Shown here: positions 1 through 35,400 of the stretch, piece by piece
How the letters are laid out: every line of letters begins with the position of its first letter
Position numbering within the stretch: the first letter of the stretch is position 1
Source: a virus
Reading direction: 5' to 3' (one strand)
Length of the DNA: 64,000 nt
Virus record (IMG/VR): IMGVR_UViG_3300045125_000077
Program-made: the position numbers and the translations under genes
The notes under the pieces: model-generated
Seen by the model: only the letters and a program-made list of their open reading frames with translations
Told to the model about the DNA's origin: nothing
Databases searched by the model: none

Positions 1-55
1 CCGTCTTAATCTGTTTAGCATATTTAACTCCATTTGTCACGGTTTTAAGATATGG

Positions 56-283
56 TCATATTTTTTGGACGATGTGCTGTTGAATGATCGCGACGGAACA
101 GTGCTGGTTGAATGGGGTCAACGTAATTCCATTTACTGTTATAGTTTCCATTGGAAGATAGACCTGCTTGGAATAATACATTACCGTCAAATTTCGCCCC
201 CTCTCCCAACCAATCAAATTTTCCGTTGTTTTGTATATATCCTCTCTGGCTCCCTCCAGTAAAGAATTGTATATATTGTCCAC
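56..283 (-). CDS. hypothetical protein downstream of the giant fibre gene (probably frameshifted near its 3' end)
   Basis: 75-aa ORF with a GTG start 7 nt after the inferred fibre stop; no recognisable motif. Confidence 0.4.
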   Translation of the reverse strand: MDNIYNSLLEGAREDIYKTTENLIGWERGRNLTVMYYSKQVYLPMETITVNGITLTPFNQHCSVAIIQQHIVQKI

Positions 284-290
284 CGGTTAA

Positions 291-3200
291 CTAAGCGCCA
301 AGTTTACTGTTCCGGCTGGGGTTAAATCGATCTCGTCCCCCCCGAGGCATTATCGGTCCACCTGGTTACGTAGTAAGTGTAGAACTGCCGTCATTTCGTA
401 TACCTATAGTATCTGTTATATAAATACCACCAAGTTGTCGTTGGTTTTGAACCATCCCATACCAGCAACTTGTTTCCACCTGTGTCTCCTACTGAGAATT
501 TTCCATCATTGGCAAGATACCATCCCAGTCTCCAGTATCAGTATGCGGTCATTCCAGCATAAGCGTTACGCAGCACTGCTCAATGTTATATTACCTCCCG
601 TTAGTGTAGTTGCGCCAATTGTCCAGCCGCTGCCGATTGTTCCGGCCAGTTGAGGTTAATGTTTCCGTTAGAACGCAAACTTCCGGAATACATCCACCGC
701 CCATGCTTAGGGTTCCGCCGGCATATTGTATTTCCGCTTATTGTCACCCAGCTTATAGTGCCGCCAGTAATAGGAATCTCCCTGTAATAGACCTCGTAGC
801 GGCAATTTGTGTCCCAGTTATTGTCCCTGCTGCCATATTTGCGGCAGTTGTAGTACCTGCGGCAATTTCAGTGTGTTGCAGTTGTAGCACCCGGCAGGCA
901 ACTCTTCCGGCGGTAATAGACCCTGCTCCACCTCTGCCGGCAGATATAGTTCCGGCAGTTATTGCGCTCGCATTAAGATTTCTTACATACGCCGAATCCA
1001 GATATACTCCACCGCCATCTACCGTGAATGGAACTATTGTTCCAGTTCCATTTGATTGTACAATTTTAAATTCGTCTACTTGTACAATAAATGAGGAAGA
1101 TGTTGATGCATCGGCGGCGAGCCTAAAACCAGCCACTCTGTTTCCAGCAGTTACTTTAACTGTATATTGAGATTTTAAATCTACTATTGAACCTGATATA
1201 GCAGCCGTCGTTGTTTGGCTTGTTGATACACTCGCTGCTAAAGATGAACTATTAATTACAACACTTGAAGATAGCGCTGTTAATAGACTTGCCAAAGAAC
1301 CAGACGCACTTGAGAAAGCAAACGCTATTTGTCCAATACTTGATGCAACATGATGCGCTATCCCAGTAAAGCTGGAAGATATTATAGTTATGGTCTGAGC
1401 AAGTGACGAACTAAAATCTACATTTGTAGTATTTACTTGAGCAATAGATGCCGCCAGAAGAACTGTTTGTACGTATGCTGGACGACAGTGTGGTAATGCT
1501 TTGCGCCAAGGACGAGCTAAACGTGGTGTTGGTCGTATTAGTCTGGGTAATGGAAGACGCCAATGACGCACTGTTGGTACTGACGCTAGCTGACAGAGTG
1601 GTGATGCTCTGCGCCAGAGACGAACTGAACGTGACGTTGGTCGTGTCAGTTCTGGTGATGGACGCAGCCAGCGACGCACTGTTGGTACGTATGCTGGCCG
1701 ACAGTGTGGTTATGCTCTGCGCCAACGAGGAACTAAACGTGACGTTGGTCGTGTCAGTTCTGGTAATAGACGCTGCCAGAGAAGAACTGTTGGTACTGAC
1801 GCTAGCCGACAACGTGGTGATGCTCTGCGCCAGAGACGGAGCTAAACGTGACGTTGGTCGTATCTGTGCGAGTAATAGACGCCGCTAGTGATGAGCTATT
1901 ACCGTCGATGCGCGACGACAGTGTGGTAATGCTTTGCGCCAAGAGACGAGCTAAACGTGGTGTTGGTCGTATTAGTCTGGGTAATGGAAGACGCCAATGA
2001 CGCACTGTTGGTACTGACGCTAGCTGACAGAGTGGTGATGCTTTGCGCCAGAGACGAACTGAACGTGACGTTGGTCGTGTCAGTTCTGGTGATGGACGCA
2101 GCCAGCGACGCACTGTTGGTACGTATGCTGGCCGATAGTGTGGTTATGCTCTGCGCCAACGAGGAACTAAACGTGACGTTGGTCGTGTCAGTTCTTCGGT
2201 AACAGACGCTGCCAGAGAAGAACTGTTGGTACTGACGCTAGCCGACAACGTGGTGATGCTCTGCGCCAGAGACGAGCTAAACGTGACGTTGGTCGTATCT
2301 GTGCGAGTAATAGACGCCGCTAGTGATGAGCTATTACCGTCGATGCGCGACGACAGTGTGGTAATGCTTTGCGCCAGAGATGAGCTAAACGTAGTGTTGG
2401 TCGTATTAGTCTGGGTAATGGAAGACGCCAATGACGCACTGTTGGTACTGACGCTAGCTGACAGAGTGGTGATGCTTTGCGCCAGAGACGAACTAAACGT
2501 GACGTTGGTCGTGTCAGTTCTGGTAATAGACGCTGCCAGAGAAGAACTGTTGGTACTGACGCTAGCCGACAACGTGGTGATGCTCTGCGCCAGAGACGAG
2601 CTAAACGTGACGTTGGTCGTATCTGTGCGAGTAATAGACGCCGCTAGTGATGAGCTATTACCGTCGATGCGCGACGACAGTGTGGTAATGCTTTGCGCCA
2701 GAGATGAGCTAAACGTAGTGTTGGTCGTATTAGTCTGGGTAATGGAAGACGCCAATGACGCACTGTTGGTACTGACGCTAGCTGACAGAGTGGTGATGCT
2801 TTGCGCCAGAGACGAACTAAACGTGACGTTGGTCGTGTCAGTTCTGGTAATAGACGCTGCCAGAGAAGAACTGTTGGTACTGACGCTAGCCGACAACGTG
2901 GTGATGCTCTGCGCCAGAGACGAGCTAAACGTGACGTTGGTCGTATCTGTGCGAGTAATAGACGCCGCTAGTGATGAGCTATTACCGTCGATGCGCGACG
3001 ACAGTGTGGTAATGCTTTGCGCCAGAGGATGAGCTAAACGTGGTGTTGGTCGTATTAGTCTGGGTAATGGAAGACGCCAATGACGCACTGTTGGTACTGA
3101 CGCTAGCTGACAGAGTGGTGATGCTTTGCGCCAGAGACGAACTAAACGTGACGTTGGTCGTGTCAGTTCTGGTAATAGACGCTGCCAGAGAAGAACTGTT

Positions 3201-6200
3201 GGTACTGACGCTAGCCGACAACGTGGTGATGCTCTGCGCCAGAGACGAGCTAAACGTGACGTTGGTCGTATCTGTGCGAGTAATAGACGCCGCTAGTGAT
3301 GAGCTATTACCGTCGATGCGCGACGACAGTGTGGTAATGCTTTGCGCCAGAGATGAGCTAAACGTAGTGTTGGTCGTATTAGTCTGGGTAATGGAAGACG
3401 CCAATGACGCACTGTTGGTACTGACGCTAGCTGACAGAGTGGTGATGCTTTGCGCCAGAGACGAGCTAAACGTGACGTTGGTCGTGTCAGTTCTGGTAAT
3501 AGACGCTGCCAGAGAAGAACTGTTGGTACTGACGCTAGCCGACAACGTGGTGATGCTCTGCGCCAGAGACGAGCTAAACGTGACGTTGGTCGTATCTGTG
3601 CGAGTAATAGACGCCGCTAGTGATGAGCTATTACCGTCGATGCGCGACGACAGTGTGGTAATGCTTTGCGCCAGAGATGAGCTAAACGTAGTGTTGGTCG
3701 TATTAGTCTGGGTAATGGAAGACGCCAATGACGCACTGTTGGTACTGACGCTAGCTGACAGAGTGGTGATGCTTTGCGCCAGAGACGAACTAAACGTGAC
3801 GTTGGTCGTGTCAGTTCTGGTAATAGACGCTGCCAGAGAAGAACTGTTGGTACTGACGCTAGCCGACAACGTGGTGATGCTCTGCGCCAGAGACGAGCTA
3901 AACGTGACGTTGGTCGTATCTGTGCGAGTAATAGACGCCGCTAGTGATGAGCTATTACCGTCGATGCGCGACGACAGTGTGGTAATGCTTTGCGCCAGAG
4001 ATGAGCTAAACGTAGTGTTGGTCGTATTAGTCTGGGTAATGGAAGACGCCAATGACGCACTGTTGGTACTGACGCTAGCTGACAGAGTGGTGATGCTTTG
4101 CGCCAGAGACGAACTAAACGTGACGTTGGTCGTGTCAGTTCTGGTAATAGACGCTGCCAGAGAAGAACTGTTGGTACTGACGCTAGCCGACAACGTGGTG
4201 ATGCTCTGCGCCAGAGACGAGCTAAACGTGACGTTGGTCGTATCTGTGCGAGTAATAGACGCCGCTAGTGATGAGCTATTACCGTCGATGCGCGACGACA
4301 GTGTGGTAATGCTTTGCGCCAGAGATGAGCTAAACGTAGTGTTGGTCGTATTAGTCTGGGTAATGGAAGACGCCAATGACGCACTGTTGGTACTGACGCT
4401 AGCTGACAGAGTGGTGATGCTTTGCGCCAGAGACGAGCTAAACGTGACGTTGGTCGTGTCAGTTCTGGTAATAGACGCTGCCAGAGAAGAACTGTTGGTA
4501 CTGACGCTAGCCGACAACGTGGTGATGCTCTGCGCCAGAGACGAGCTAAACGTGACGTTGGTCGTATCTGTGCGAGTAATAGACGCCGCTAGTGATGAGC
4601 TATTACCGTCGATGCGCGACGACAGTGTGGTAATGCTTTGCGCCAGAGATGAGCTAAACGTAGTGTTGGTCGTATTAGTCTGGGTAATGGAAGACGCCAA
4701 TGACGCACTGTTGGTACTGACGCTAGCTGACAGAGTGGTGATGCTTTGCGCCAGAGACGAACTAAACGTGACGTTGGTCGTGTCAGTTCTGGTAATAGAC
4801 GCTGCCAGAGAAGAACTGTTGGTACTGACGCTAGCCGACAACGTGGTGATGCTCTGCGCCAGAGACGAGCTAAACGTGACGTTGGTCGTATCTGTGCGAG
4901 TAATAGACGCCGCTAGTGATGAGCTATTACCGTCGATGCGCGACGACAGTGTGGTAATGCTTTGCGCCAGAGATGAGCTAAACGTAGTGTTGGTCGTATT
5001 AGTCTGGGTAATGGAAGACGCCAATGACGCACTGTTGGTACTGACGCTAGCTGACAGAGTGGTGATGCTTTGCGCCAGAGACGAACTAAACGTGACGTTG
5101 GTCGTGTCAGTTCTGGTAATAGACGCTGCCAGAGAAGAACTGTTGGTACTGACGCTAGCCGACAACGTGGTGATGCTCTGCGCCAGAGACGAGCTAAACG
5201 TGACGTTGGTCGTATCTGTGCGAGTAATAGACGCCGCTAGTGATGAGCTATTACCGTCGATGCGCGACGACAGTGTGGTAATGCTTTGCGCCAGAGATGA
5301 GCTAAACGTAGTGTTGGTCGTATTAGTCTGGGTAATGGAAGACGCCAATGACGCACTGTTGGTACTGACGCTAGCTGACAGAGTGGTGATGCTTTGCGCC
5401 AGAGACGAACTAAACGTGACGTTGGTCGTGTCAGTTCTGGTAATAGACGCTGCCAGAGAAGAACTGTTGGTACTGACGCTAGCCGACAACGTGGTGATGC
5501 TCTGCGCCAACGAGGAGCTAAACGTGACGTTGGTCGTATCTGTGCGAGTAATAGACGCCGCTAGTGATGAGCTATTACCGTCGATGCGCGACGACAGTGT
5601 GGTAATGCTTTGCGCCAAGGACGAGCTAAACGTGGTGTTGGTCGTATTAGTCTGGGTAATGGAAGACGCCAATGACGCACTGTTGGTACTGACGCTAGCT
5701 GACAGAGTGGTGATGCTTTGCGCCAGAGACGAACTGAACGTGACGTTGGTCGTGTCAGTTCTGGTGATGGACGCAGCCAGCGACGCACTGTTGGTACGTA
5801 TGCTGGCCGATAGTGTGGTTATGCTCTGCGCCAACGAGGAACTAAACGTGACGTTGGTCGTGTCAGTTCTGGTAATAGACGCTGCCAGAGAAGAACTGTT
5901 GGTACTGACGCTAGCCGACAACGTGGTGATGCTCTGCGCCAGAGACGAGCTAAACGTGACGTTGGTCGTATCTGTGCGAGTAATAGACGCCGCTAGTGAT
6001 GAGCTATTACCGTCGATGCGCGACGACAGTGTGGTAATGCTTTGCGCCAGAGATGAGCTAAACGTAGTGTTGGTCGTATTAGTCTGGGTAATGGAAGACG
6101 CCAATGACGCACTGTTGGTACTGACGCTAGCTGACAGAGTGGTGATGCTTTGCGCCAGAGACGAACTAAACGTGACGTTGGTCGTGTCAGTTCTGGTAAT

Positions 6201-9200
6201 AGACGCTGCCAGAGAAGAACTGTTGGTACTGACGCTAGCCGACAACGTGGTGATGCTCTGCGCCAGAGACGAGCTAAACGTGACGTTGGTCGTATCTGTG
6301 CGAGTAATAGACGCCGCTAGTGATGAGCTATTACCGTCGATGCGCGACGACAGTGTGGTAATGCTTTGCGCCAAGGACGAGCTAAACGTGGTGTTGGTCG
6401 TATTAGTCTGGGTAATGGAAGACGCCAATGACGCACTGTTGGTACTGACGCTAGCTGACAGAGTGGTGATGCTTTGCGCCAGAGAAGAGCTAAATGTGAC
6501 GTTGGTCGTGTCAGTTCTGGTAATAGACGCTGCCAGAGAAGAACTGTTGGTACTGACGCTAGCCGACAACGTGGTGATGCTCTGCGCCAGAGACGAGCTA
6601 AACGTGACGTTGGTCGTATCTGTGCGAGTAATAGACGCCGCTAGTGATGAGCTATTACCGTCGATGCGCGACGACAGTGTGGTAATGCTTTGCGCCAAGG
6701 ACGAGCTAAACGTGGTGTTGGTCGTATTAGTCTGGGTAATGGAAGACGCCAATGACGCACTGTTGGTACTGACGCTAGCTGACAGAGTGGTGATGCTTTG
6801 AGCCAGAGACGAGCTAAACGTGACGTTTGTCGTATTGGTCTGGGTGATGGATGCCGCCAGTGACGAGCTATTACCGTCGATGCGCGACGACAGTGTGGTA
6901 ATGCTTTGCGCCAGAGAAGAGCTAAATGTGACGTTGGTCGTGTCAGTTCTGGTAATAGATGCTGCCAGAGAAGAACTGTTGGTGCTGACGCTAGCCGACA
7001 ACGTGGTGATGCTCTGAGCCAGAGACGAGCTAAACGTGACGTTGGTCGTATTGGTCTGGGTGATGGATGCCGCCAGTGACGCACTATTTATATCGACTCT
7101 AGACGATAGTGCAGTAATAGTTTGTGCCAAAGATGAACTGAAATTTACCTGAGTAGTAGTTGCGTTCGTTATTGTTGATGATAATGATGCACTATTATAT
7201 TAATACTGGAAGATAATGCAGTTACCCTAGTCGCTAGAGAAGAACTAAACGTACTAAATACAGTGTCTGTAGAAGTTATAGAAGACGCAAAAGAAGCGCT
7301 GGATAAATTGATACTGAAGATAATGTAGTAGTTCTTGTTGCCAAAGAAGAACTAAATGTAGTTTGTATATCTTCTACAGTTTTTATAGATGCCGCCAAAG
7401 AAGAACTGTTCGTAGTAACTCTAGAATCTAATTGAGTTGTTCTTGAAGCAAGAGATGATGAAGTATTTGTTGCGGCAAGTTCTATTGTTGTTATAGATGC
7501 AGCCAATGAAGAACTATCTATAAAAATTGCGCTCGCGGATATTGAAGCAATTCTCTGCGCAAGAGACGAACTTGCTGTACTAAAAGAAACATCTGTACTC
7601 GTTATTGCTGCTGAAAGTGAACTACTAAACGTTATAAAACTTGAAGAAATTGTAGTAGATTCGGAAGCTAATGATGCGCTAGCAGTAGTAAACACAGTGT
7701 CTACATTTGTTATAGATGCAGCAATTGAAGCACTTGTAAAATTAATACTAGATGATAGCGTCGTTGAACGTTGTGCTAATGAAGAACTTGTCGTAGTAAA
7801 TACAGTATCTACACTTGTTATAGATGCCGCTAGTGATGCACTATTTGTTTTAACACTTGAAGAGAGTATAGTAATACTTTGCGCCAGAGACGAGCTAAAC
7901 GTGACGTTTGTAGTATCAGTTCTGGTGATAGACGCTGCCAGAGAAGAACTGTTGGTGCTGACGCTAGCTGACAGAGTGGTGATGCTCTGAGCCAGAGACG
8001 AGCTAAACGTGACGTTTGTCGTATTGGTCTGGGTGATGGATGCCGCCAGTGACGAGCTATTACCGTCGATACGCGACGACAGTGTGGTAATGCTTTGCGC
8101 CAGAGATGAGCTAAACGCAGTGTTGGTCGTATTAGTCTGGGTAATGGAAGACGCCAATGACGCACTGTTGGTACTGACGCTAGCTGACAGAGTGGTGATG
8201 CTTTGCGCCAGAGACGAACCAAACGTGACGTTGGTCGTGTCAGTTCTGGTGATAGATGCTGCCAGAGAAGAACTGTTGGTGCTGACGCTAGCCGACAACG
8301 TGGTGATGTTTCTGAGCCAGAGACGAGCTAAACGTGACGTTTGTCGTATTGGTCTGGGTGATGGATGCCGCCAGTGACGAGCTATTACCGTCGATACGCG
8401 ACGACAGTGTGGTAATGCTTTGCGCCAAGGACGAGCTAAACGTGGTGTTGGTCGTGTTGGTCTGGGTAATTGAAGACGCCAGTGACGAGCTGTTTGTGCT
8501 GACGCTAGCTGACAGTGTGGTAATACTTTGTGCCAGACGACGAGCTAAACGTTACGCTGGTCGTGTCAGTTCTGGTGATGGACGCAGCCAGTGACGCACT
8601 TATTGGTACGTATGCTGGCCGATAGTGTGGTAATACTTTGCGCCAGAGACGAGCTAAACGTGACGTTTGTCGTATCAGTTCTGGTGATAGATGCTGCCAG
8701 AGAAGAACTGTTGGTGCTGACGCTAGCCGACAGAGTGGTGATGCTTTGCGCCAGAGACGAGCTAAACGTGACGCTAGTCGTATTGGTCTGGGTGATGGAT
8801 GCCGCCAGTGACGAGCTATTACCGTCGATACGCGACGACATGTGTGGTAATGCTTTGCGCCAAGGACGAGCTAAACGTGGTGTTGGTCGTGTTGGTCTGG
8901 GTAATGGAAGACGCCAGTGACGCGCTGTTGGTGCTGACGCTGGCCGACAGAGTGGTGATGCTTTGCGCCAGAGACGAGCTAAACGTGACGTTTGTCGTAT
9001 CAGTTCTGGTGATAGACGCTGCCAGAGAAGAACTGTTTGTGCTGACGCTAGCTGATAGAGTGGTGATGCTTTGCGCCAGAGACGAGCTAAACGTGACGCT
9101 AGTCGTATTGGTCTGGGTAATGGATGCCGCCAGTGACGAGCTATTACCGTCGATACGCGACGACAGTGTGGTAATGCTTTGCGCCAAGGACGAGCTAAAC

Positions 9201-12200
9201 GTGGTGTTGGTCGTGTTGGTCTGGGTAATTGGAAGACGCCAGTGACGAACTGTTGGTACTTACACTGGACGACAACGTAGTAATACTTTGCGCTAAAGAT
9301 GAACTAAATGTAACACTCGTCGTGTTAACTTGAGTTATCGATGCTGCTAAAGATGCGCTATTAGTGCGTATACTAGAAGATAAATTGGTGAAAGTCTGGG
9401 CTAAGGATGAACTAAAATTGGTATTAGTAGTATTTACCTGAGTAATAGACGATGCCACGATGCACTATTAGTATCTACTCTGGACGATAAAGTCGATACG
9501 GTTTGTGCCAACGATGAACTAAAATTAGTATTTGTCGTACTCGTTTGACTAATAGATGCGGCCAAAGATGCACTATTTGTAACTACACTAGAAGAAAGAA
9601 TAGTCACCCTTTTGAGCAAGAGAAGAACTAAAGTCTGAACTGGGCGGTGTCAATAGATACTATAAATGACGCCAAAGAAGCACTGGTATTACTTACAGAA
9701 GAATTTAATGTAGTAAATCTTTCGGAGAATGAAGATGAATTATTTATTACAGCTTGTTCTATTGTTGTTATAGAAGCTGCAAGTGAAGAACTGTCTATGA
9801 ATATGGCACTGGCTGAAATAGATGCTATTCTTTGTGCTAGTGAAGAACTTGCGTTTGTAAACGCAAAATCTGTACTTGTAACCGCAGCAGATAAAGAACT
9901 GCTAAATGTTAAAAAAGCTAGAAGACAGCGTTGTGGTTCTAGACGCCAAAGAAGAACTTGCCGTAACAAATACAGTATCTACATTGGTTATAGATGCAGC
10001 AATTGAAGCACTTGTAAAATTAATGCTTGCGGACAACGTAGTTGATATTTGCGCTAAAGAGGAAGAAGCATCAGTAAATGTAGTTTGAACATTTGTTATA
10101 GACGCAGCAAGTGAAGCGCTGTTTGTTCTAACACTAGACGATAGTGTGGTAATACTTTGCGCCAGAGACGAGCTAAACGTTACGCTAGTCGTATTGGTCT
10201 GGGTAATGGATGCCGCCAGTGACGAGCTATTACCGTCGATACGCGACGACAGTGTGGTAATGCTTTGCGCCAAGGACGAGCTAAACGTTGTGTTGGTCGT
10301 ATTAGTCTGGGTAATGGAAGACGCCAGTGACGAGCTGTTTGTTGCTGACGCTAGCTGACAGAGTGGTGATGCTTTGCGCCAGAGACGAGCTAAACGTGAC
10401 GCTGGTCGTATTGGTCTGGGTGATGGATGCCGCCAGTGACGCACTATTGGTACGTATGCTGGCTGATAGTGTGGTAATACTTTGCGCCAGAGACGAGCTA
10501 AATGTGACGCTTGTCGTACAGTTCTGGTAATAGATGCTGCCAGAGAAGAACTGTTGGTACTGACGCTGGCTGGATAGTGTGGTGATGCTTTGTGCCAACG
10601 AGGAACTGAACGTTACGCTGGTCGTATTGGTCTGGGTAATGGATGCCGCCAGTGACGAGCTATTACCGTCGATACGCGACGACAGTGTGGTAATGCTTTG
10701 CGCCAAGGACGAGCTAAACGTTGTGTTGGTCGTATTAGTCTGGGTAATGGAAGACGCCAGTGACGAGCTGTTTGTGCTGACGCTAGCTGACAGAGTGGTG
10801 ATGCTTTGCGCCAGAGACGAGCTAAACGTGACGCTGGTCGTATTGGTCTGGGTGATGGATGCCGCCAGTGACGCACTATTGGTACGTATGCTGGCTGATA
10901 GTGTGGTAATACTTTGCGCCAGAGACGAGCTAAATGTGACGCTTGTCGTGTCGGTTCTGGTAATAGACGCCGCCAGAGAAGAACTGTTGGTGCTGACGCT
11001 AGCTGACAGAGTGGTGATGCTTTGTGCCAACGAGGAACTGAACGTTACGCTAGTCGTATTGGTCTGGGTAATGGATGCCGCCAGTGACGAGCTATTACCG
11101 TCGATACGCGACGACAGTGTGGTAATGCTTTGCGCCAGAGACGAGCTAAACGTTGTGTTGGTCGTATTAGTCTGGGTAATGGAAGACGCCAGTGACGAGC
11201 TGTTTGTACTGACGCTGGCTGATAGTGTGGTGATGCTTTGTGCCAACGAGGAACTGAACGTTACGCTAGTCGTATTGGTCTGGGTAATGGACGCCGCCAG
11301 TGATGAGCTATTGCCGTCGATACGCGACGACAATGTGGTAATGCTTTGCGCCAGAGATGAGCTAAACGTGGTGTTGGTCGTGTTGGTCTGGGTAATTGAA
11401 GACGCCAGTGACGAGCTGTTTGTACTGACGCTGGCTGATAGTGTGGTGATGCTTTGTGCCAACGAGGAGCTAAACGTGACGCTGGTCGTGTTGGTCTGTG
11501 TAATGGACGCCGCCAGTGACGAGCTATTACCGTCGATACGCGACGACAGTGTGGTAATGCTTTGCGCCAAGGACGAGCTAAACGTTGTGTTGGTCGTATT
11601 AGTCTGGGTAATTGAAGACGCCAGTGACGAGCTGTTTGTGCTGACGCTAGCTGACAGTGTGGTAATACTTTGTGCCAACGAGGAGCTAAACGTTACGCTG
11701 GTCGTGTCAGTTCTGGTGATGGACGCAGCCAGTGACGCACTATTGGTACGTATGCTGGCCGATAGTGTGGTAATACTTTGCGCCAGAGACGAGCTAAATG
11801 TGACGCTTGTAGTGTTGGTCTGGGTGATGGATGCCGCTAGTGACGAACTATTACCGTCGATACGCGACGACAGTGTGGTAATGCTTTGCGCCAAGGACGA
11901 GCTAAACGTTGTGTTGGTCGTATTAGTCTGGGTAATGGAAGACGCCAGTGACGCACTGTTGGTACTAATACTGGAAGAAAGAACAGTGACTCTTTGTGCC
12001 AACGAAGAACTATAATCACTATTTACCGTACTTATTTCCGTCACAAATGCGGATATAGACGCACTGGAATTATTAATTGATGAATTTAATATAGTAGTTC
12101 TATCCGCGAACGAAGAAGAATTGGTTACTATCGCCTGTTCTAATGTAGTAATAGACGCCGCAAGTGAAGAACTATCTATAAAAATTGCGCTTGCAGATAT

Positions 12201-14651
12201 AGAAGCCAGTCTTGACGCTAATGATGCACTTGCATTAGTGAATGCAAAATCTGTATATGTTACTGCCGCAGATAATGAACTGCTAAACGTGTCAAAATTT
12301 GCATTAAGTTCATTCGACCGTTGGGCTAATGAAGAACTGGTGTTTGAAAATACAGTATCTACACTTGAAATTGTTGCAGAAATAGAAGCACTTGCTAGAT
12401 TTATACTAGAAGATAATGTAGTAGACCTTGTAGCAAGAGAAGAACTTAAATCTGTAAAGGTTTGTTCCACAGTGCTTATTGTAGCCAACAGTGAAGCACT
12501 GGTATTTACAAAACTTGAAGAAAGAATAGTTGCTCTTGATGCCAATGAAGAACTAAATGTTACAAATGTTTCTTCGGTCGTGGATATAGATGCTGCCAAT
12601 GAAGCACTTTGAGAATTAACATTAGAATCAAGAATAGAAACTCTGGAAGCAAGGGATGAAGAATTATCTACCAAAGTTTGCTCAATCGTGGTTATAGAAG
12701 CAGCAAGTGAGGCACTATCTATGAATACCGCGCTGGACGAAAGTTGGGACAGGCGTTGTGCCAAAGATGAGCTTGCATTAGTAAATGCAAAATCTGCGCT
12801 GGTTATTACCGAAGAAAACGACGAACTGAATTCATATACACTAGCAGATACTATTGTAGTTCTAGAAGCAAAGGATGATGACAGTGTAGTTATTGCTGTC
12901 TCATTTTCTGATATAAATGAAGAAAACGAAGAACTTACTCCATTTATACTAGAATTGATTGATACCAACCTTTGCGCCAAAGAAGCTGATGTGTCAGTGA
13001 GTGTGGTGGAAGATTCAGATATTGACGCCGCGATAGAAGCACTTGCATTTTCTATATTTGAAGACAACGTAGAACTTCTTTGTGCAGAGAAGAAGAAGTA
13101 GTTACAAATGTTTCATCCAATGAAGCGATTGTCGCAGAAATTGAAGAGCTCGCGGTAGTAATATCAGATGATAAAGTTGATATTTTTGTGCAAGAGACGC
13201 CGATGCGTCTGTGAAAGTAGTATCAGCGGTGGAAATTCTAGACGCTAATGATTGGCTGGTATTTGAAAAACTTGCTTCTAGAAGCTGCGTTCTTTCCACC
13301 AAAGAAGAGGAAACTGTAACAAATGCCGTATCTGCATTTTGTATTAATGCCGCAATCGATGCGCTATTTTCATTGAAATTTACCGCAGCAGCTATTGTAG
13401 TTATTCTTCCAGACAGAGATGACGATGCGTCAACAAATGTAATGTTATTGTCTGATATAGAAGATGCAAGAGACGAGCTTGCGTTAGAAAGTGAACTTCT
13501 AAGCTCATCTATTGTTAGTGCAGAAGATGCGCTGGTTGTAGTAAAAGAATCTCTTACAGATTTTACGCTAGAATCAAGAGAACCGGATACATTTGTAAAT
13601 GACGTGGACAATTCCACAATTTGGGTAGCCGCCGAAGAACTAAAAGTTGTCAGCGTCGATGAAAGTTGAGTTATTGTTGCCGCCAACGATGCGCTATCCA
13701 AAGAACCAGACCCAGCTATATACGAAGAAAGGTTTTCTACTTTTGCTGCCAAAGAAGAACTTGCGTTTATAAAAGTATTATATGTTGTATTTATTGATGC
13801 AGCGAGCGACGCACTATTAAAATTCGCAGTAGAACCAATTGTATCAATTCGAGTTGCAATAGATTCGCTGGTAGTAGTTAATGTAGCTTCTATAGTTTTT
13901 ATAGAACTTGCCAATGAACTACTATTTGATGTTAAAGACGACCCAAGGCTGTTTATATTTGCCGCAAACGACGAAGAACTATCCGAAAACGCCCCGTAAA
14001 CAGAAGTTATATATGCCGCAGTAGATGCGGAGTTCTGCAATAGTGTTTCACTAAATGCTCCATAACTCGCAGATAAAGATGCAGATACTTGATTCAACCT
14101 ATTTACAACTGAAGAAGATACGCTAGTCAATGAGCTATTCAACGAGTTTACTCTCGTACTAAGAGAACTCGATGCAGCAGTTAATACTCTTACATTAGTA
14201 GAAATGGAAGAAGAAAATAAACCAAGTTCTTGTCTTACTACATCAATCGATTCTGTTGGAAGAGATATTATTGGTCCACCACCTTGTTGTATTGTAAGCG
14301 TGCCATTATTTTGGTCAGTCAATTTAACCGACCCTACATACAAACTCCCAGAAGTAACGTATATATCCCGCCATCTACGAGAAGGGCTACCCAAATCATA
14401 CATGTTGTCAGTTTGGGGAATTATACTCTGATTTACTTGACTTAAATCAATAGAGCCACTTACAAATGAACCACTACCACCAGAGCTTAAATATGGTAAA
14501 CTGGACCACGATGCTGTTCCATTTCCTATTTTAAGTTTTCCGGTATCTAGTTCAAACCCAGCTTCGCCGGATATAAAGTAGGATTTACTGCTGTCCAATT
14601 TGCAGCAGTATCACGCTTTAACTGAATTCTGGAAATTCTAATTGTTGCCAT
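291..14651 (-). CDS. giant tail fibre/tip protein (~4,780 aa, split by indels): Mtd_N-like N-terminus, ~4,300-aa Ser/Thr/Ala repeat coiled coil, DUF1983/TipJ-like C-terminal domain followed by AGTIT-type repeats
   Basis: ATG at 14651 reads MATIRISRIQLKRDTAANWTAVNP, then after a 1-nt shift SGEAGFELDTGKLKIGNGTASWSSLPY (Mtd_N motif). ORFs 13102-14598, 10302-13067, 7276-8298, 2982-7130 and 2144-3088 carry the same repeat. ORF 753-1679 has QYTVKVTAGNRVAGFRLAAD...FIVQVDEFKIV...PFTVDGGGVYLDSAYV (DUF1983-like). The stop at 291 is inferred by hand translation. Confidence 0.8.
1400..13100. repeat. nested coding tandem repeat: 54-bp half unit, 108-bp (36-aa) unit, 324-bp (108-aa) super-unit, interrupted by degenerate AT-richer blocks
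   Basis: Unit SSSLAQSITTLSSRIDGN/SSSLAASITRTDTTNVTF. The 60-nt lines starting at 3301 and 4921 are identical (offset 1620 = 5x324); the same line recurs at 6001 (offset 1080 = 3x324+108). Confidence 0.97.
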
Positions 14652-14663
14652 TTTCTATAAATA

Positions 14664-16900
14664 TCACGTAGACCCAGCATCTCCACCATCTAGAACAATA
14701 TCTATAATTGTTCCACCACCTCCGCCACCGCCTCCACCACCGCCCCTCCACCACCGCCACCTCCACCACCGCCACCGCCTATTACAACAGTAAATGGGAT
14801 ATCGCTGGATACTATACCTAATGGATCTACGAATAATTTTGTTTTTAATGGCATAAATCTTTTATTATAAGCAAATGTATATGAGTTTTTACCATATGCT
14901 AGCCTGTTTTGGGCGTCATATAGTTCCATTTCTATCTCATATAGTTCATTTGGCACCTTTACCGGCAATGGTATTTTGACGCTAAAACTATCAATGGAAT
15001 AATCTATGTTTTGATATGGCTGTATAGAAATATCAGATATATTCCATTCGCCTTTGCTTGGTGCGAGCAATATTGTACCAAATGACTCTTGTTCATTGAA
15101 AAATGATTTTTCATATGCTTCATTAGCACCAAAGTTATATGCACTATCTATATATCCAATCATTTTTTTAGTTGTTCCGCTTATATAATAAGTATATAAT
15201 TTAGCATCATTTGAGTTGTTTGGTCCTGCTTTAACGTTCATACTGAACTTATATAAAGTATTTTGACGCAATCTTATAGGATTACTATCGTGAACTTGAC
15301 CATTTATCAGGTTTTCTTGTGATGCACTATAGTTTGATATATATGGAATATTATTTATGCCAAGATATGATGACGTTGGATATATACCATAGTTTATAAA
15401 CGCATCTGTATTAGCATACCAATATGAGTTATTTAGCAAGTTTGGTGCATAATATGTAAAGTCTCTTGAGCCGGAAAAAGTATTATCTTTGAATATTACA
15501 TAATCAGTTAGTGAAGAATTGTCGGCGTGGCTTATTTTTGCACCATTTATAAGCACTTCATTGCTTTGTGTAAATACACAGCCGCCTTTTATAAACCAAT
15601 GTTTATTTACGTGGAGCATTGTTATAGAAGTATGATGTATTTTCATACAAGGCATTATCAAACTTAGTTGAACGTATAACATTTTCTGCTTCTATAGTTC
15701 CCTGAGACAATAATATTTTTGATTCTGGGCCATTTAAGCTTCTGCCATATATTTTGTAATATGATAAATCTCCGCATAATGTTCTAGCATTGTTGCATTC
15801 AACGTTTAGTACAGAAACAAAATATGTTGAACCGGATGGATCTGCTCGTGGTAAAGATACTGGTATTTGTTTATGGAATATTTCAAATCCACCATCAGAC
15901 AAACTTAGCGCATAAAAATTTTTCTTATGAAATACAGTTTGCTTGGCAGCATCATCTATAACAGTATATCCTTTCAACTGCACAAGATTATTTTTAGCAT
16001 ATGGAGAGTCTTCGTTGGTATTATTGATAAGTTCAGATACCGTAGCAAATGGTATATCAAGTATTATAGATGTTTCATTTACTACACGTTTTATCTTGGA
16101 AATAAAGTCTGTATTTAGCACACCTTGATATTCTACTCTATTATCTCCAAAGTTTGTATAAGTAAATTTTGTTACGGTTGGATTTTTTAGGCGTATACTT
16201 TCGCCCTCCATAGATGCATTGAACTTGTTCCCAGATTTCCAATACAACTGATATATTGCATTTTCAAACTGATAATCATAATCTCCATTCGCATTATTTT
16301 TTGGAGTTATTGCAATAGCGGAAAATGTGCCAGAAGAAAGAGTATATGAACTTGTTGGATATGATGGAAGAGAATATATTTCTGCTTTTGTTCTGATATA
16401 CGGTGAAGTAAAAAATCTAATTTCAGACTCAGTCTTTTTTGTTGTGTCTATCAGTAAATTTCTTGTCCAAGTAACTTCTCCAGTTTCTAATTTGGTGCTG
16501 TCGGACGGAGCACTTGTAAGAGGCAATCTTTGATTTCTGTTTATTTTGTATCCTACATTATTATAATAAGCAACAAGACCAGTATATCCTTCCAAATTTA
16601 GCCCAAGTGCAGTTATTTCTATTCTACCAATACCATTTATTGTTTCTTCTGGTACATTTATATAATACAACTGACCAGTAAGTGTTTGTTCAGAAAATGC
16701 AGAATTGGTTGGTTGAATTATACCAGAAGGTAAAATATTACCTTGAGTATCATATACTCTTACTGTAATAGGAGTATTGGGTATTACATATGGCGTCGTA
16801 TTTAGCGTAAATGAGTTCTTACCTGCTTTTAGTATATCACTAAAATTAGTTAGAAAAAGTAGGTATTAGAGATGTTGTCCGCGTCAAATAGTTGTTCCAT
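14664..16900 (-). CDS. putative virion structural protein with a C-terminal poly-Gly linker (~745 aa, frameshifted)
   Basis: ATG at 16900 (MEQLFDADNIS...) joins ORFs 15603-16670 and 14702-15682; the corrected end reads (G)n-TIIDIVLDGGDAGST*; TATTTATA box upstream. Confidence 0.65.
14713..14780. repeat. (CCN)n tract encoding ~22 Gly on the minus strand
   Basis: ccaccacctccgccaccgcctccaccaccgccc... run visible in the sequence. Confidence 0.9.
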
Positions 16901-16934
16901 AGGTTTTTATATTTCCTATGGTTATAAATATATA

Positions 16935-19900
16935 TTAGACGCTATTATCTATCTTACTGAAGCCGTTTTCCTTCTTTATCTCAAGTTGCTTGTCTACCAT
17001 ATCACGCATGGCATCAAGATGGCTTATTATAATAATAAAATCAAAGTTTCGCTTCAAATAATCAAACAATGCATGCAGCATAGGAATATTATTGCCATCT
17101 AAAGCTGAAAAACCTTCATCTACTACAAGATAGTTTGGTCTTGGTAGATTGCTTATGTTGATGAAGAGCAACTCTAAGTGCCAAACCAGATATGAACTTT
17201 TCCATACCTGAACATAGTTCAAGTGGCCATTTTTTGTCTTCGTATTTGATATATACGTTTACATTTTTGCCGTCTGTTTCTATAGCAATGCTAAACTCAA
17301 CAATATGAGATAATATGCTATTTACTTCTTGCTCAATCTTTTGGAATAGCATCTGATATGATTTGATATGGCACGCCATCCTTGCCAACCGCAGAGATAT
17401 AATACTGATATGCTGCCAAGTCATCTTCATATTGCTGTATGGTAATCAACTGCTTTTCTGTTTCTTTTAGTTGGTCGCCAAATGATATTTTTTTGCTATA
17501 TGCATCAACATATTCTTTTTCTATGTTTTTTAGGCGAGAAGATAATGCCGGATGACTTTATCTTTAGTTCAGATATAACATCTTCTATAGCCTTATTACT
17601 TTCCACAATCTCTTTGGACTTTTCATATAGTTCTATAGAGTTTTGCAGTTCAGTTATGCGAGTTGTGTTTTTATCAAATGCTGACTTTAGATTTGATTTT
17701 TCAAGTTCCTTTTGGATATAAACGCAGTAAGAGTGTTTACAAGTTCTTTTAGTTTTACGCTTTCTTCATACTTGAGCACATATTCAGCATATGTTTCCAT
17801 TTCTGCTTTTACATTTGACAGCGACTCAGATAGTTCTTTTGCTTCTGATTTATCGGCAGCAAGGCTTTCGCGTGTTGCTATAGCATCCTTTACAAAGATA
17901 TTATCGCAGCAAAATCTACAGTTAGGGTCATACTCGTGCTTATCTAAATGAGCCAGCTTTTTTAGCTTTTCATTTACAAGCGTTTTGAGTTTATCCATTT
18001 CATTTTCAATACGCTGCTTGGTTCTGGTCAATGACTGATATTTGTCATTCTTTTCTTTGAGGTCATCTGGAAACTCTTTTAGTTTGTTGGACGCATCAAT
18101 ATATTCTTGTTTCTTGCCAATCGTTTCGTTGTCTATTTTTTCAATATATTCAAGCGTCTGCTTGTTCTTTAGCACAAGAGACATCTCGCTCACGAACAAT
18201 AGGCATTATGTTAGTAGGCACGTTTTCAAGTTTTACAATAGTATCCTTTTTGGCTTCTATCTGAGCATCAATATCGTTCTTGGATATTGCCAGTGCGTCC
18301 TTTTGCTCGTTCAAGTCGTTGAGTTTGGCGTCAAGTAGTTCTATATCGTTCTTGGTTTGACTGATTTTCTTCAAGCCATTTTCCTTGTTGAACAACTTGA
18401 CTGCACCAGATAGTTCCTTGGTTTTGTCGGACGCCAAAGATGCCAACTTATCAAACAAGTTCAAGCCAATGAACTGACTAAGCAGTTCTTTGCGTTCTGT
18501 TTGACCCATATCAATAAAATGAACCTTGATTGCCTTGCAAGGCAAGAGTAGTCAATACAAAGTCGTCATAATCGCCGAGATAATCGCGTATGATTTCGTT
18601 GGTGCTGCGGCGTGCCTCACTATTCAGGCTTACTTTTTCATCGCCGTTCATCTTGTAAAAGTTTACATCAACCTTTACATTGTTCTTTTTGTCTCTCTTA
18701 CCTCACGCTCTATGACATAATGAACGTTGTTGATTTCAAAGGTAAACTTGCCGCTGAATGACATCTTTTGAGAGTTCATTACGTGCGTGGCCTTGAATGC
18801 TCTTGCACTCCTTGTCAAAGACCGTAAAACACAACGCATCCATTAGAGAACCTTGCCGCTGGCATTGGCAGCAAACAATCCATATACATCTTCAAGTTTG
18901 GTAAAATCAAGAATGTTATTTTCGCCATAACTGAACATATTACTGAACTCAAACTTGATTGGCTTCCAGCGAATGTTTCTGGATGTATCATCCTTGGTGA
19001 GCGATGCATTCAGGTCTTTGTTGATTTTATTGACAGCGTCAATAGTTTCGTCATCCATTACATCCACAAACTTCTTTTTCAGATATTCAGATACAATCTT
19101 GTTTTGATAATCTATGTTGCCGATTTGATTTAGGTTTGAGATGTTTTGTGCCTGAGCAACTTTGGTCGCACCATCTGTATCTACTCTTACATAAATCAAG
19201 TCGGTGATTTCATATGTTTTGCGAAGTTCGTTGATTATCTTCTTTACTTCCGTAGCGACACTTTCTTGCAACGCACACGCAGTTTTGGTTTTGCGTGGCA
19301 TGGTAGTGATGTCAGTAATCAGTTTGCCGTCATCAACATCTATCGTAAAATACCCATAGTCGTTTGGTATTTCAATATGAGAATATGTTCTTTGCTTGAT
19401 ATTCCACAATGTAAATCCGTGTCCAAGCAATGCTTCGCCGTGGTTCTGCTGAATAAGAGAACCAGCATATCGTATAATAGGTTTTTCAGTTGCTTTATCA
19501 TAACTTTGTAAATCTTGAATCATATGAATATCACCAAGCATGGCAATATCGTGTCCGTCAAATAGTTCATTAGTAATCGTCTTATCTGATACTGCATATC
19601 CTATATCCGTCTTTGCGTTCAACACACCGCCGTGAAATAACGCAATCTTATCATCAAATGTCATTTTTATCTTCTTGATACATTCTTCATCTTGATGTAT
19701 TTGGTAGGGTCATCAAATACACTCATGTTATTGATTAGTAAGTTGGCGGCACCATACAATCCTGTATTCTTGAGATAAAAAGTTTAGCGTGCTTTAGATT
19801 TTCAACAATGGGAGATATACTATCAAGTCGCGTAACATTTGTCAGCAAGCAGTCGTGATTTCCAGCAATAACAATCGTTGGACGAAGTTCTGCTAATCTA

Positions 19901-33443: not shown

Positions 33444-35400
33444 TTATGCTACTCTGCCTACTATATCTTTAGTTGGAAAACGAACCTCAAACACAGATGG
33501 GTCTATAGACGGATATATTACCTTATCTACAGTAGCCTTGGATATATCATACTCATATTGTGAATAATCACCATCTTTTAGCGTCAAGTTCTTTACTTTC
33601 AGTTGAGTTACAGACTGAACGCCGTCTACTTTGGCTATTTCAAGTTCCAACCTACTTAGATTAATAGGCTGACAGAACTTAGTATTGTTTATGTCAAAAT
33701 ATTGCTGCACAAGAGTTAGGCAGTTGGCCAAAACTTCACGCTTATTATAGTTTTTATAAACAATAATGCTAAAATCTACGCCAACATTGATTACATAACC
33801 ATCCAAGATATTAACACTATCTGTAAGCATTCTGTATTGATTTAGGTAATTTTTCAAGTTAGTACGCAATGCTTCGTTGGTAGGTATCAATCGTTGATTG
33901 TTGTCATAACACAATACATACAAGTTGATGGCAAATTGATTATTATTTGAAGGGTCCACTGCATTGACTGTGCCTGGAGCCGAACTTCCAGTTTGAATTG
34001 ATGAAGGTTGTGCTTGTATATTTGCCAAATCCAATTGCGTGTCTGTAACTGCATACACCTTAGCTACAGAACCATATTTTGATGGCATAGCATATGTTCT
34101 CACTTCATAATCTTTCTGTGTCACCGCACGATTTTGAGCAGCAAAATATGCCAATGCATTGTTGCGAATTTCGTCGTTTGTTTCTGCGGATTTACCTCCG
34201 GTTGCGGGCACTGGGTTATTAACTCTCACAGAACGTCGCACTAAATTTGTTAAGAATTAAGTTCCAACAGTCCAAGTTCAGTCAAATCTCCAAAAAATTC
34301 AACAGAGCTTACATTCTTGATGGCATTTGCATTAACATTGCTTTCTATACCACCGCCAACAACATATCTTACTGTCAATGTTGTATTGGATGGTGCCTGC
34401 CCAAATGCTTTTGATGATAGAAAGTTTGATGGGTCGTATGAAATGTTTTCGGCTCTAAATGTCGTTGGCTTGTTTACGGTAAATGCATTTGGTATTATCA
34501 GTTCGTCGTCTTTAATGCTTGTACCAGAACCAAATTCCAAGAATGTAGTATTATCGGCACCTACGCCAGTAACAAAACGTTTTGATGTGCGAAGATATCT
34601 TAACAAAAATGGTGTAGTATCTCTGTATGCGGAAAGCGTTACATCATTTTTATAAATGTTCTCATAATCCACGGGAACCAAATCCTGTGCGAGATAATCC
34701 GTCTCGTGCCATCTATTTCCGTCCGAATCATACACGTCTAAAACTTCTATAACATTTGTATCATCCAAATACACTTTAAAAAACGGAATTGGGTCAGTTA
34801 CGGTTATGTTTTTTGTTAATATTCTTCCAGAAAATGCATCAACGTTTTTCTTCAATACAAAAAATTCTGGCTGTCCTGCGGCATTTCTTTGAAATACTGA
34901 AATTTCTAATGGGTCGTTTTTAGTGTCCACGGTAAAATCAACCGGAGAATTAGTAATAAATGTTATATTGCTATCACTCGTAGATGTCATTCCGGGCTTT
35001 ATTATCTGAGCATAGTTCAAGTCTGGAACTATTTCGCCAGCGTCGTCGGTTTTTGCAGGTACGAGTTGATAAACATCTAATCTCGTGACAGAAGGTATTG
35101 TAACTTTAGTCTTATATCCTACAGATTTTGCCGCATCAATGATGTTCTTTCTTTCTTCCGAATTTACGAGCATAGATTCTTTGAATTGGTAATCTATATA
35201 GTACGACATCACGTCTCCAACATATGCCACCATTTCCATGAACATCATGCCGGTAGACGCCTCGCTAAAATCTTTATATGTATTTGGATAATATGTTTTG
35301 GCAAATTCCATCAAAGATTGCTTTAACTGAGAAAATCTTTGTTTAGATACTTTATATCTTTCTTTTCTGGTTTGAATGATTTTGGTGTATCTAATATCAT
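33444..35400 (-). CDS. baseplate wedge subunit (T4 gp6 / baseplate J-like)
   Basis: KYLNKDFSQLKQSLMEFAKTYYPNTYKDFSEASTGMMFMEMVAYVGDVMSYYID; ATGG..AETNDEIR...AQNRAVTQKDY; one frameshift near 34245. Confidence 0.9.

Follow-up and report, generated by a model that had tools for sequence, protein, structure and literature searches.

A probable giant tail fibre with a long Ser/Thr-rich helical repeat domain in an uncultivated freshwater T4-like myophage

The 64,000-nt sequence IMGVR_UViG_3300045125_000077, called the window below, carries on its minus strand a real gene of roughly 4,950 codons, most of which is made of tandem repeats rich in Ser and Thr. We consider this gene probably to encode a giant tail fibre that serves in receptor binding by an uncultivated T4-like myophage from freshwater, with a rod of ~0.65 micrometres if the assembled copy number of the repeats is right. 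This reading rests on an N-terminal adaptor shared with known fibres, on a repeat domain of 4,346 residues predicted to be helical, and on a C-terminus that combines a tail-tip domain with an intramolecular chaperone.

The gene starts at the ATG at position 14651 (MATIRISRIQLKRDT...), as a preliminary description of this DNA had proposed. Its stop-to-stop open reading frames (ORFs) give the Ser/Thr-rich reading on the minus strand in pieces (13102-14598, 10302-13112, 2982-7199 and others), which we joined by a Viterbi dynamic programme trained on the long ORF pieces and allowing shifts of +1 and -1. The frame tracked in this way from 14610 down to 782 comprises 4,607 codons with 21 frame breaks and no in-frame stop; a further break near 14572 corresponds to a 1-nt deletion relative to the related contig L002, and at least six more lie between 782 and 1, so that at least 28 single-base corrections are needed over the 14.65 kb. 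The preliminary description ended the gene at 291, which is ~290 nt too early: in a tblastn search the related protein P0158 aligns down to base 4 of the window, which it reaches at its residue 521 of 594, and therefore the gene runs off the window. About 73 aa of the protein, belonging to the Peptidase_S74 part, fall outside, and the full precursor is estimated at ~4,950 aa. The features of the gene, together with one marker gene on the same contig, are as follows.

1..14651, minus strand: whole fibre gene as far as it lies in the window; ATG at 14651, 3' end beyond base 1, at least 28 frame corrections
14245..14651, minus strand: N-terminal adaptor, with an Mtd_N domain (HylP-like) and a domain with the motif DLGSPSRRWRDIYV; one frameshift near 14572
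11967..14241, minus strand: variable helical region, ~760 aa of diverged 18/36-aa units with a 3.6 period; collinear with the intact L002
10130..11966, minus strand: array A, ~17 copies of a 36-aa unit ('TQTNTTSVTF' subtype), with a higher order of 216/432 nt; internal DNA identity at best 88-98%
9500..10129, minus strand: variable island 1, a homologue of the last part of the N-terminal variable region; same island in L002
7830..9499, minus strand: array B, ~15 units; best internal DNA identity 84-96%
7150..7829, minus strand: variable island 2
1443..7149, minus strand: array C, ~53 units of 36 aa in 324-nt super-units; copies 98-100% identical over ~6600-1500
861..1217, minus strand: Phage_Tail_Tip (PF09327), scoring 32.8 bits (cut-off 22); shares 77% identity with residues 1-83 of P0158
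780..998, minus strand: short repeats of the AGTIT type, after the tip domain
100..779, minus strand: distal region, which contains GGWTIG..TLTGG repeats as well as the motifs 'GKFSVGD..LVWDGSK' and 'GGQYIQF' and is interrupted by at least six frame breaks
1..99, minus strand: start of Peptidase_S74 (SFNSTSSKKY...), cut by the window edge
33447-35314, minus strand: gp6-like baseplate wedge gene (phrog_219, phrog_6, phrog_10646), split in two

The window is an error-prone long-read assembly, and the broken frame has to be seen against this background. In the genes that flank the fibre gene, a comparison with their relatives reveals gaps of a length not divisible by three at a density of 4.3-4.5 per kb; the gp6-like baseplate wedge gene, whose two ORFs match phrog_219 and phrog_6 and mark the contig as T4-like, is cut in two by a frameshift, and the 745-aa gene upstream of the fibre is likewise frame-broken. 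We collected 13 related short-read contigs, seven N-terminal (L001-L004 from IMG/VR and L050-L052 from metagenomes) and six C-terminal. In all seven N-terminal contigs the orthologous ORF is open from the MATIRIS... start for 615-1,662 aa, and in the six contigs with the C-terminal protein P0155 the fibre frame is open to the contig start, with up to 380 aa of array. Because the orthologous ORF is unbroken in the relatives and the window is noisy throughout, we regard the frame breaks of the fibre gene, many of which are at short A or T runs, as long-read sequencing errors and not as genuine changes, as judged from this comparison. At least 28 frame breaks in 14.65 kb might in themselves speak for a decaying pseudogene with genuine frameshifts; however, the lack of any in-frame stop in the 4,607 corrected codons, the intact orthologues in 13 of 13 short-read contigs, and an indel density that is equal or higher in neighbouring essential genes make such a pseudogene hardly credible. 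The proposal of a single reading frame after indel correction is thereby upheld. Long ORFs also occur on the plus strand of the array (3040-6801 and others within 1448-13669), which we rejected as mirror-frame artefacts, since all domain matches, relatives and flanking genes are on the minus strand. These antisense ORFs reach 1,253 aa, encode repeats rich in D, E, L and V, and are called by gene callers on relatives too (L054:3-638).

The N-terminus of the protein belongs to a known type of fibre adaptor. In L002, an intact relative that shares 92% identity with the window in the N-terminal region (the relatives range from 75 to 92% protein identity), the Mtd_N domain (PF18454) scores 53.9 bits, above the gathering score, whereas in the window it reaches 21.4 bits against a cut-off of 26.3 because of the 1-nt deletion and the resulting frameshift; the Mtd_N-like start of the preliminary description is thus borne out. 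Residues 8-57 of the adaptor match the N-termini of HylP hyaluronidases of solved structure (PDB 6x3m, 2c3f), and the PHROG matches of the N-terminus are mostly to families of tail fibres and tail spikes. A search with the 200-aa N-terminal module retrieved 21,922 relatives among 1.84 billion cluster representatives, which makes it a widespread fibre adaptor; among GenBank phage proteins the N-terminus has two weak matches.

The C-terminus consists of modules typical of tail fibres. Phage_Tail_Tip, which we take to be the former DUF1983, is found at 32.8 bits in the window ORF 756-1709 and at 26.6-40.8 bits in the relatives, and it is accompanied by the AGTIT-type repeats, so that both C-terminal elements named in the preliminary description are present. 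However, that description missed the Peptidase_S74 chaperone (PF13884), which lies at the extreme C-terminus of the related proteins P0155, P0157 and P0158 with 49.8-51.8 bits (cut-off 22), and of which the window contains only the first ~30 residues. The S74 region matches PDB 6f45, described as 'Long tail fiber distal subunit', and the distal tail-fibre subunits of many cultured T4-like phages. At its cleavage site the relatives have S-S-R-[KR]-Y-K, and the window has S-S-K-K-Y followed by a frame break; the Ser and the Lys five residues further on may be the catalytic Ser-Lys dyad. The distal region between the short repeats and the chaperone is presumed to be the receptor-binding part. An AlphaFold2 prediction for the C-terminal relative P0156, based on an alignment of four sequences, had a mean pLDDT of 45.9 and was unusable. 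Taken together with Mtd_N, the tail-fibre matches in PHROG and the T4-like structural context, the Phage_Tail_Tip and S74 domains agree with the earlier assignment of the gene to a phage fibre.

Between these ends lie 4,346 residues of 18-, 36- and 108-aa repeats, with a composition of 29.5% Ser, 19.5% Thr, 11% Ala, 0.9% Gly and 5.8% charged residues, and without any Pro, Cys or Trp. Positions 1, 5, 9, 12 and 16 of the 18-residue unit are occupied by F/N, L, I, L/T and V/I/N, respectively. The regular spacing of L, I, V and F seen in the preliminary description is confirmed by the Fourier spectrum of the hydrophobic residues, in which the dominant period is exactly 3.60 residues (18/5) in the homogenised and variable parts alike; even the diverged 750 aa on the N-terminal side show it, with a power of 3156 at 3.60 compared to 151 at 3.5 and 19 at 3.67. 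The peak is sharp, and the phase is held over thousands of residues. An undistorted alpha-helix has just this period, with five turns per 18 residues; therefore the hydrophobic stripe would run straight along the helix and form a bundle without supercoil. For AlphaFold2 we used a 216-aa piece of the array with an alignment of 87 in-register windows, for which L002, L004 and both the variable and the homogenised parts of the window were used. The best model is one helix from residue 2 to 215 with a mean pLDDT of 95.1, and the weak Pfam matches of the repeats are all to families of helical 11-mers or coiled coils. The repeats are thus predicted to form an alpha-helix, as had been suggested beforehand, and the whole domain is predicted to be one unbroken alpha-helical rod of ~0.65 micrometres (4,346 residues at 0.15 nm each give 652 nm). 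Of the preliminary estimate of ~4,300 helical residues and ~0.65 micrometres the arithmetic stands; the length itself would hold only if the repeats form a single straight, uninterrupted trimeric rod and if the assembly gives their copy number correctly.

Several observations weigh against this reading of the gene, and they concern its attachment to the virion, its oligomeric state and its length. With respect to the first, the fibre gene adjoins genes of DNA metabolism outside the baseplate block: it follows genes for a primase, SbcCD and the 745-aa protein, and is ~19 kb away from the baseplate wedge genes. The best PHROG match of the N-terminus, phrog_697, is a structural protein filed under 'head and packaging', and fibritin of T4 is a trimeric coiled coil as well. 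It could thus be argued that the protein is not a tail fibre, but a filament of the head or neck, similar to the fibritin whiskers or to the head filament of phiCbK, or that it is not a part of the virion at all. However, most PHROG matches of the N-terminus are to tail fibres or tail spikes, Phage_Tail_Tip and S74 are modules of tail fibres, and the S74 region matches annotated distal tail-fibre subunits, and hence we regard a filament elsewhere on the virion, or a non-virion protein, as very improbable.

The second group of observations concerns the rod. The parallel trimeric coiled coil is putative and proposed by analogy; a prediction of the complex of three copies of the 216-aa array piece gave a score of 0.00 in a run without controls, and carries no weight either way. 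The 5.8% of charged residues is atypical for a coiled coil, and the repeat region has no match in cultured phages. Apart from the two best AlphaFold2 models (pLDDT 95.1 and 93.4), the remaining three of the five are of lower confidence (75.8, 69.0 and 58.2). In addition, the second half of the 36-aa unit has a weaker core, with N, T and N at three core positions, every unit contains the Asn-rich and partly Gly-containing triplets DGN and STN, and the variable parts exhibit about a dozen register shifts. A protein of the full length could therefore fold back into antiparallel bundles or consist of kinked segments, with a reach far below 0.65 micrometres. On the other hand, in the two best models the helix is unbroken through DGN and STN, the 4,346 residues do not contain a single Pro, and the 3.60 phase is kept over thousands of residues. 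In the K1F endosialidase, the C-terminal S74 chaperone trimerises, sets the register and cleaves itself off. The chaperone of the T5 tail fibre protein pb1 is trimeric and self-cleaving, too (PMC4690869), and by analogy with both proteins a C-terminal S74 domain would imply a parallel, in-register trimer. On balance, folded-back or kinked helices appear distinctly unlikely to us.

The third point is the number of repeats. According to Tandem Repeats Finder, a single array with nested periods of 54, 108 and 324 nt occupies 1443-11966 and amounts to 97 copies of the 108-nt unit. The repeat domain as a whole begins with the variable region, which is followed by array A, island 1, array B, island 2 and array C; both islands are similar to the last part of the variable region. 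As far as array B, the regions of L002 are arranged as in the window. Chunk-wise blastn within the array reveals that arrays A and B are each made of distinct unit subtypes with higher-order periods of their own and with best internal DNA matches of 84-98%, and because their units are distinct in this way they can be placed uniquely. In array C, between ~6600 and 1500, each 324-nt window has copies that are at least 98% identical, mostly 10-14 of them and 1-7 at the variant units, which act as markers at about 5.8, 2.1 and 1.7 kb. The longest run without a marker extends over 3.2 kb, from 5630 to 2390, and comprises ten 324-nt units; as these are near-identical, the copy number of this run is uncheckable here. 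In the near-identical stretch of ~6710-2390 (4.3 kb) there is one frame break, as opposed to ~2 per kb in the rest of the gene, which suggests that the core of array C was homogenised by polishing with multi-mapped reads, and the identity of 98-100% may overstate its true homogeneity.

The copy number of the array is thus unverified, depending on one noisy assembly with a marker-free run of 3.2 kb, and it can be supposed that the fibre is real while the length of its array is an artefact of assembly, in which case the protein would have ~2,000-3,500 aa and the rod would measure 0.2-0.4 micrometres. This possibility is consistent with a core that is 98-100% identical over ~5 kb and free of the indel noise seen elsewhere, as well as with the comparison with L002, which crosses array A in ~6 units against ~17 in the window. 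Furthermore, no relative spans an array: all seven N-terminal contigs end two to about twelve units into the homogeneous array, the C-terminal relative P0157 begins 1.5 units before the end of an array resembling array C, and in 13 of 13 short-read contigs the gene breaks off inside the array, so that there is no independent full-length copy and the window is the only sequence found here that spans such an array. Likewise, no protein longer than 2,910 aa with this N-terminus was found among 5.8 billion proteins, a negative result that is weak given the word-index limits of the search. However, DNA differences of 4-30% set arrays A and B and the islands apart from one another and from array C, so that they are uniquely placed, the variant units at about 5.8, 2.1 and 1.7 kb serve as anchors for array C, and the 3.2-kb run is within the ordinary length of long reads. 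Even if the ten units of this run were collapsed to one copy, ~3,900 aa would be left, which we take as a conservative floor. Assemblers collapse repeats more often than they expand them, which also counts against an artefactual length. We judge an artefact of this size to be rather unlikely, and the long tail fibre described at the outset remains the reading that we prefer.

The relatives support the view that long arrays are a feature of the clade. Each lineage has its own consensus repeat unit, which is indicative of concerted evolution. Two contigs of the sample 3300034111, the N-terminal L003 and the C-terminal L058, carry the same unusual, lineage-specific unit, and we therefore argue that one gene links both ends. 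As far as these contigs allow us to judge, long homogeneous arrays are a conserved trait of this phage clade; they expand, contract and homogenise by unequal recombination, and hence the length of the fibre probably varies between lineages. Attempts to extend the comparison added little: a search of IMG/VR with the C-terminal pieces of the window retrieved no relative, a repeat query for related loci led to no contig beyond the two that were known before, and among GenBank phages there was neither a nucleotide match to 20 kb of the window nor a cultured relative of the phage. Proteins of 914-2,909 aa that share the N-terminus are only distant matches with 9-16% coverage, and none of the long proteins from the two N-terminus searches pairs this Ser/Thr content with a 3.6 period. 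The nearest in period among those sharing the adaptor are P0003-P0005, with 28-33% Ser+Thr and a period of 3.52-3.59.

The kind of fibre proposed here is already known, namely a coiled-coil tail fibre with an S74 chaperone; what is new is its scale and its uncharged Ser/Thr surface. The homogenised 18-residue repeat is also distinctive, as is the combination of an Mtd_N head with a Phage_Tail_Tip and S74 tail on a T4-like phage. Fibrous proteins with related modules differ in instructive ways. HylP of streptococcal prophages, which is a trimeric fibrous protein, and Mtd of the Bordetella phage have only the N-terminal adaptor in common with the fibre, which contains neither the hyaluronidase nor the C-type-lectin body of Mtd. 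T4 fibritin (wac) is a parallel trimeric alpha-helical coiled coil with a C-terminal folding domain, as we propose for the fibre. However, it has 486 aa, is ~50 nm long, is built of heptads and ends in a foldon instead of S74, and no homology to it was detected here. The long tail fibre of T4 measures ~145 nm. A closer counterpart is the L-shaped tail fibre of T5, whose protein pb1 forms, like the protein described here, an elongated coiled-coil fibre with a C-terminal S74 intramolecular chaperone. Nonetheless, pb1 has 1,396 aa compared to ~4,950 aa (about 3.5 times as many), and both it and the fibres of the RBPseg class TC7, a described class that combines a coiled coil with S74 (PMC12143355), show no similarity of sequence beyond S74 to our protein, the rod of which is instead a homogenised, almost uncharged 18-residue Ser/Thr repeat. 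Coiled coils of varying length ahead of J-type tips characterize the RBPseg classes TC3, TC4 and TC9 (PMC12143355), in agreement with the preliminary description, which had pointed to such an arrangement as known. These fibres of the lambda gpJ type share Phage_Tail_Tip with our protein, a coiled coil before it and short AGTIT-like repeats after it. On the other hand, the adaptor here is Mtd_N and not the J/baseplate-hub fold, the phage is a T4-like myovirus, and the coiled coil is more than ten times longer. In the literature, we found neither a phage fibre of comparable length nor a report of the largest phage protein.

The genes around the fibre gene add some further observations. The gene directly upstream (14702-16940, minus strand) encodes the 745-aa protein and is intact in L002 (7667-9904); the protein has no match in Pfam or PHROG, and at its end a stretch of glycines, from 12 in the window up to 23 in L002, precedes ...IDIVLDGGDAGST. 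L002 has at 4426-7632 a single ORF of 1,068 aa in which an SbcD-like nuclease (Metallophos) is fused to an SbcC-like ATPase (phrog_100 and phrog_77), the window copy of which (~18846-19664 and beyond) is fragmented. At 3-1925 of the same contig lies an ORF of 640 aa that contains an FG-GAP repeat (51 bits) and weakly resembles a dockerin; its product may be another surface-binding protein of the phage. No tRNAs were found in the window. In the related contig L054 (2237-12232) three ORFs of 223, 981 and 213 aa come after the fibre gene, and beyond them lies a cluster of sugar-modification genes, which includes a GT1 with a methyltransferase, a DegT aminotransferase, a hexapeptide transferase, methyltransferases and a GT2. 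It is tempting to speculate that this cluster may be linked to glycosylation of the Ser/Thr-rich fibre, and a rod of which half the residues are Ser and Thr is an obvious candidate for a substrate of the phage's own glycosylation genes.

The data show an unbroken gene in the relatives, the order of its domains, their helical period in the repeats and a confidently predicted helix. In the mechanism that we infer, which comprises the trimer, the self-cleavage, the attachment site, the physical length and the function as a tether, the Mtd_N/HylP-like N-terminus would dock the fibre on the virion, as the homology of this module suggests. The ~4,350 residues of 18-residue repeats would form an unsupercoiled alpha-helical coiled coil, with the straight stripe of F, L, I, L and V inside and the remaining surface made of Ser, Thr, Asn and Gln. 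Phage_Tail_Tip, the short beta-type repeats and the distal domain would constitute the host-binding tip, again to judge from the homology of the modules. By analogy with T5 pb1 and the K1F endosialidase, the S74 chaperone may trimerise first, bring the three chains into register and then cut itself off, and from the register set in this way the parallel trimer would zip towards the N-terminus. A flexible tether of 0.5-0.65 micrometres would enlarge the radius within which the phage encounters and captures a cell, with the greatest benefit in the case of small planktonic hosts at low density, and after the first contact it would keep the baseplate near the surface of the host.

A bolder version of this proposal can be put forward tentatively, as a possibility that we would not expect to hold in all its parts. 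According to it, the fibre would be a straight 18/5, nearly uncharged and Ser/Thr-coated trimer of ~0.65 micrometres, the longest viral adhesin filament, whose length is tuned by recombination of the 324-nt units and which is O-glycosylated by sugar-transfer genes of the phage, and it would act as a 'fishing line' that raises the number of encounters with small, dilute planktonic hosts.

Since the gene is cut within the array in 13 of 13 short-read contigs of the clade, fibres of this kind escape notice in standard viromes and protein catalogues. If the length is true, this would be, to our knowledge, the longest phage fibre described, several times the long tail fibre of T4, and it would be among the longest continuous coiled coils in biology. 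It would also raise the questions of how three chains of 4,900 residues fold in register, how such a rod is stable without salt bridges, and whether a long tether of this kind speeds up the adsorption of phages in dilute water.

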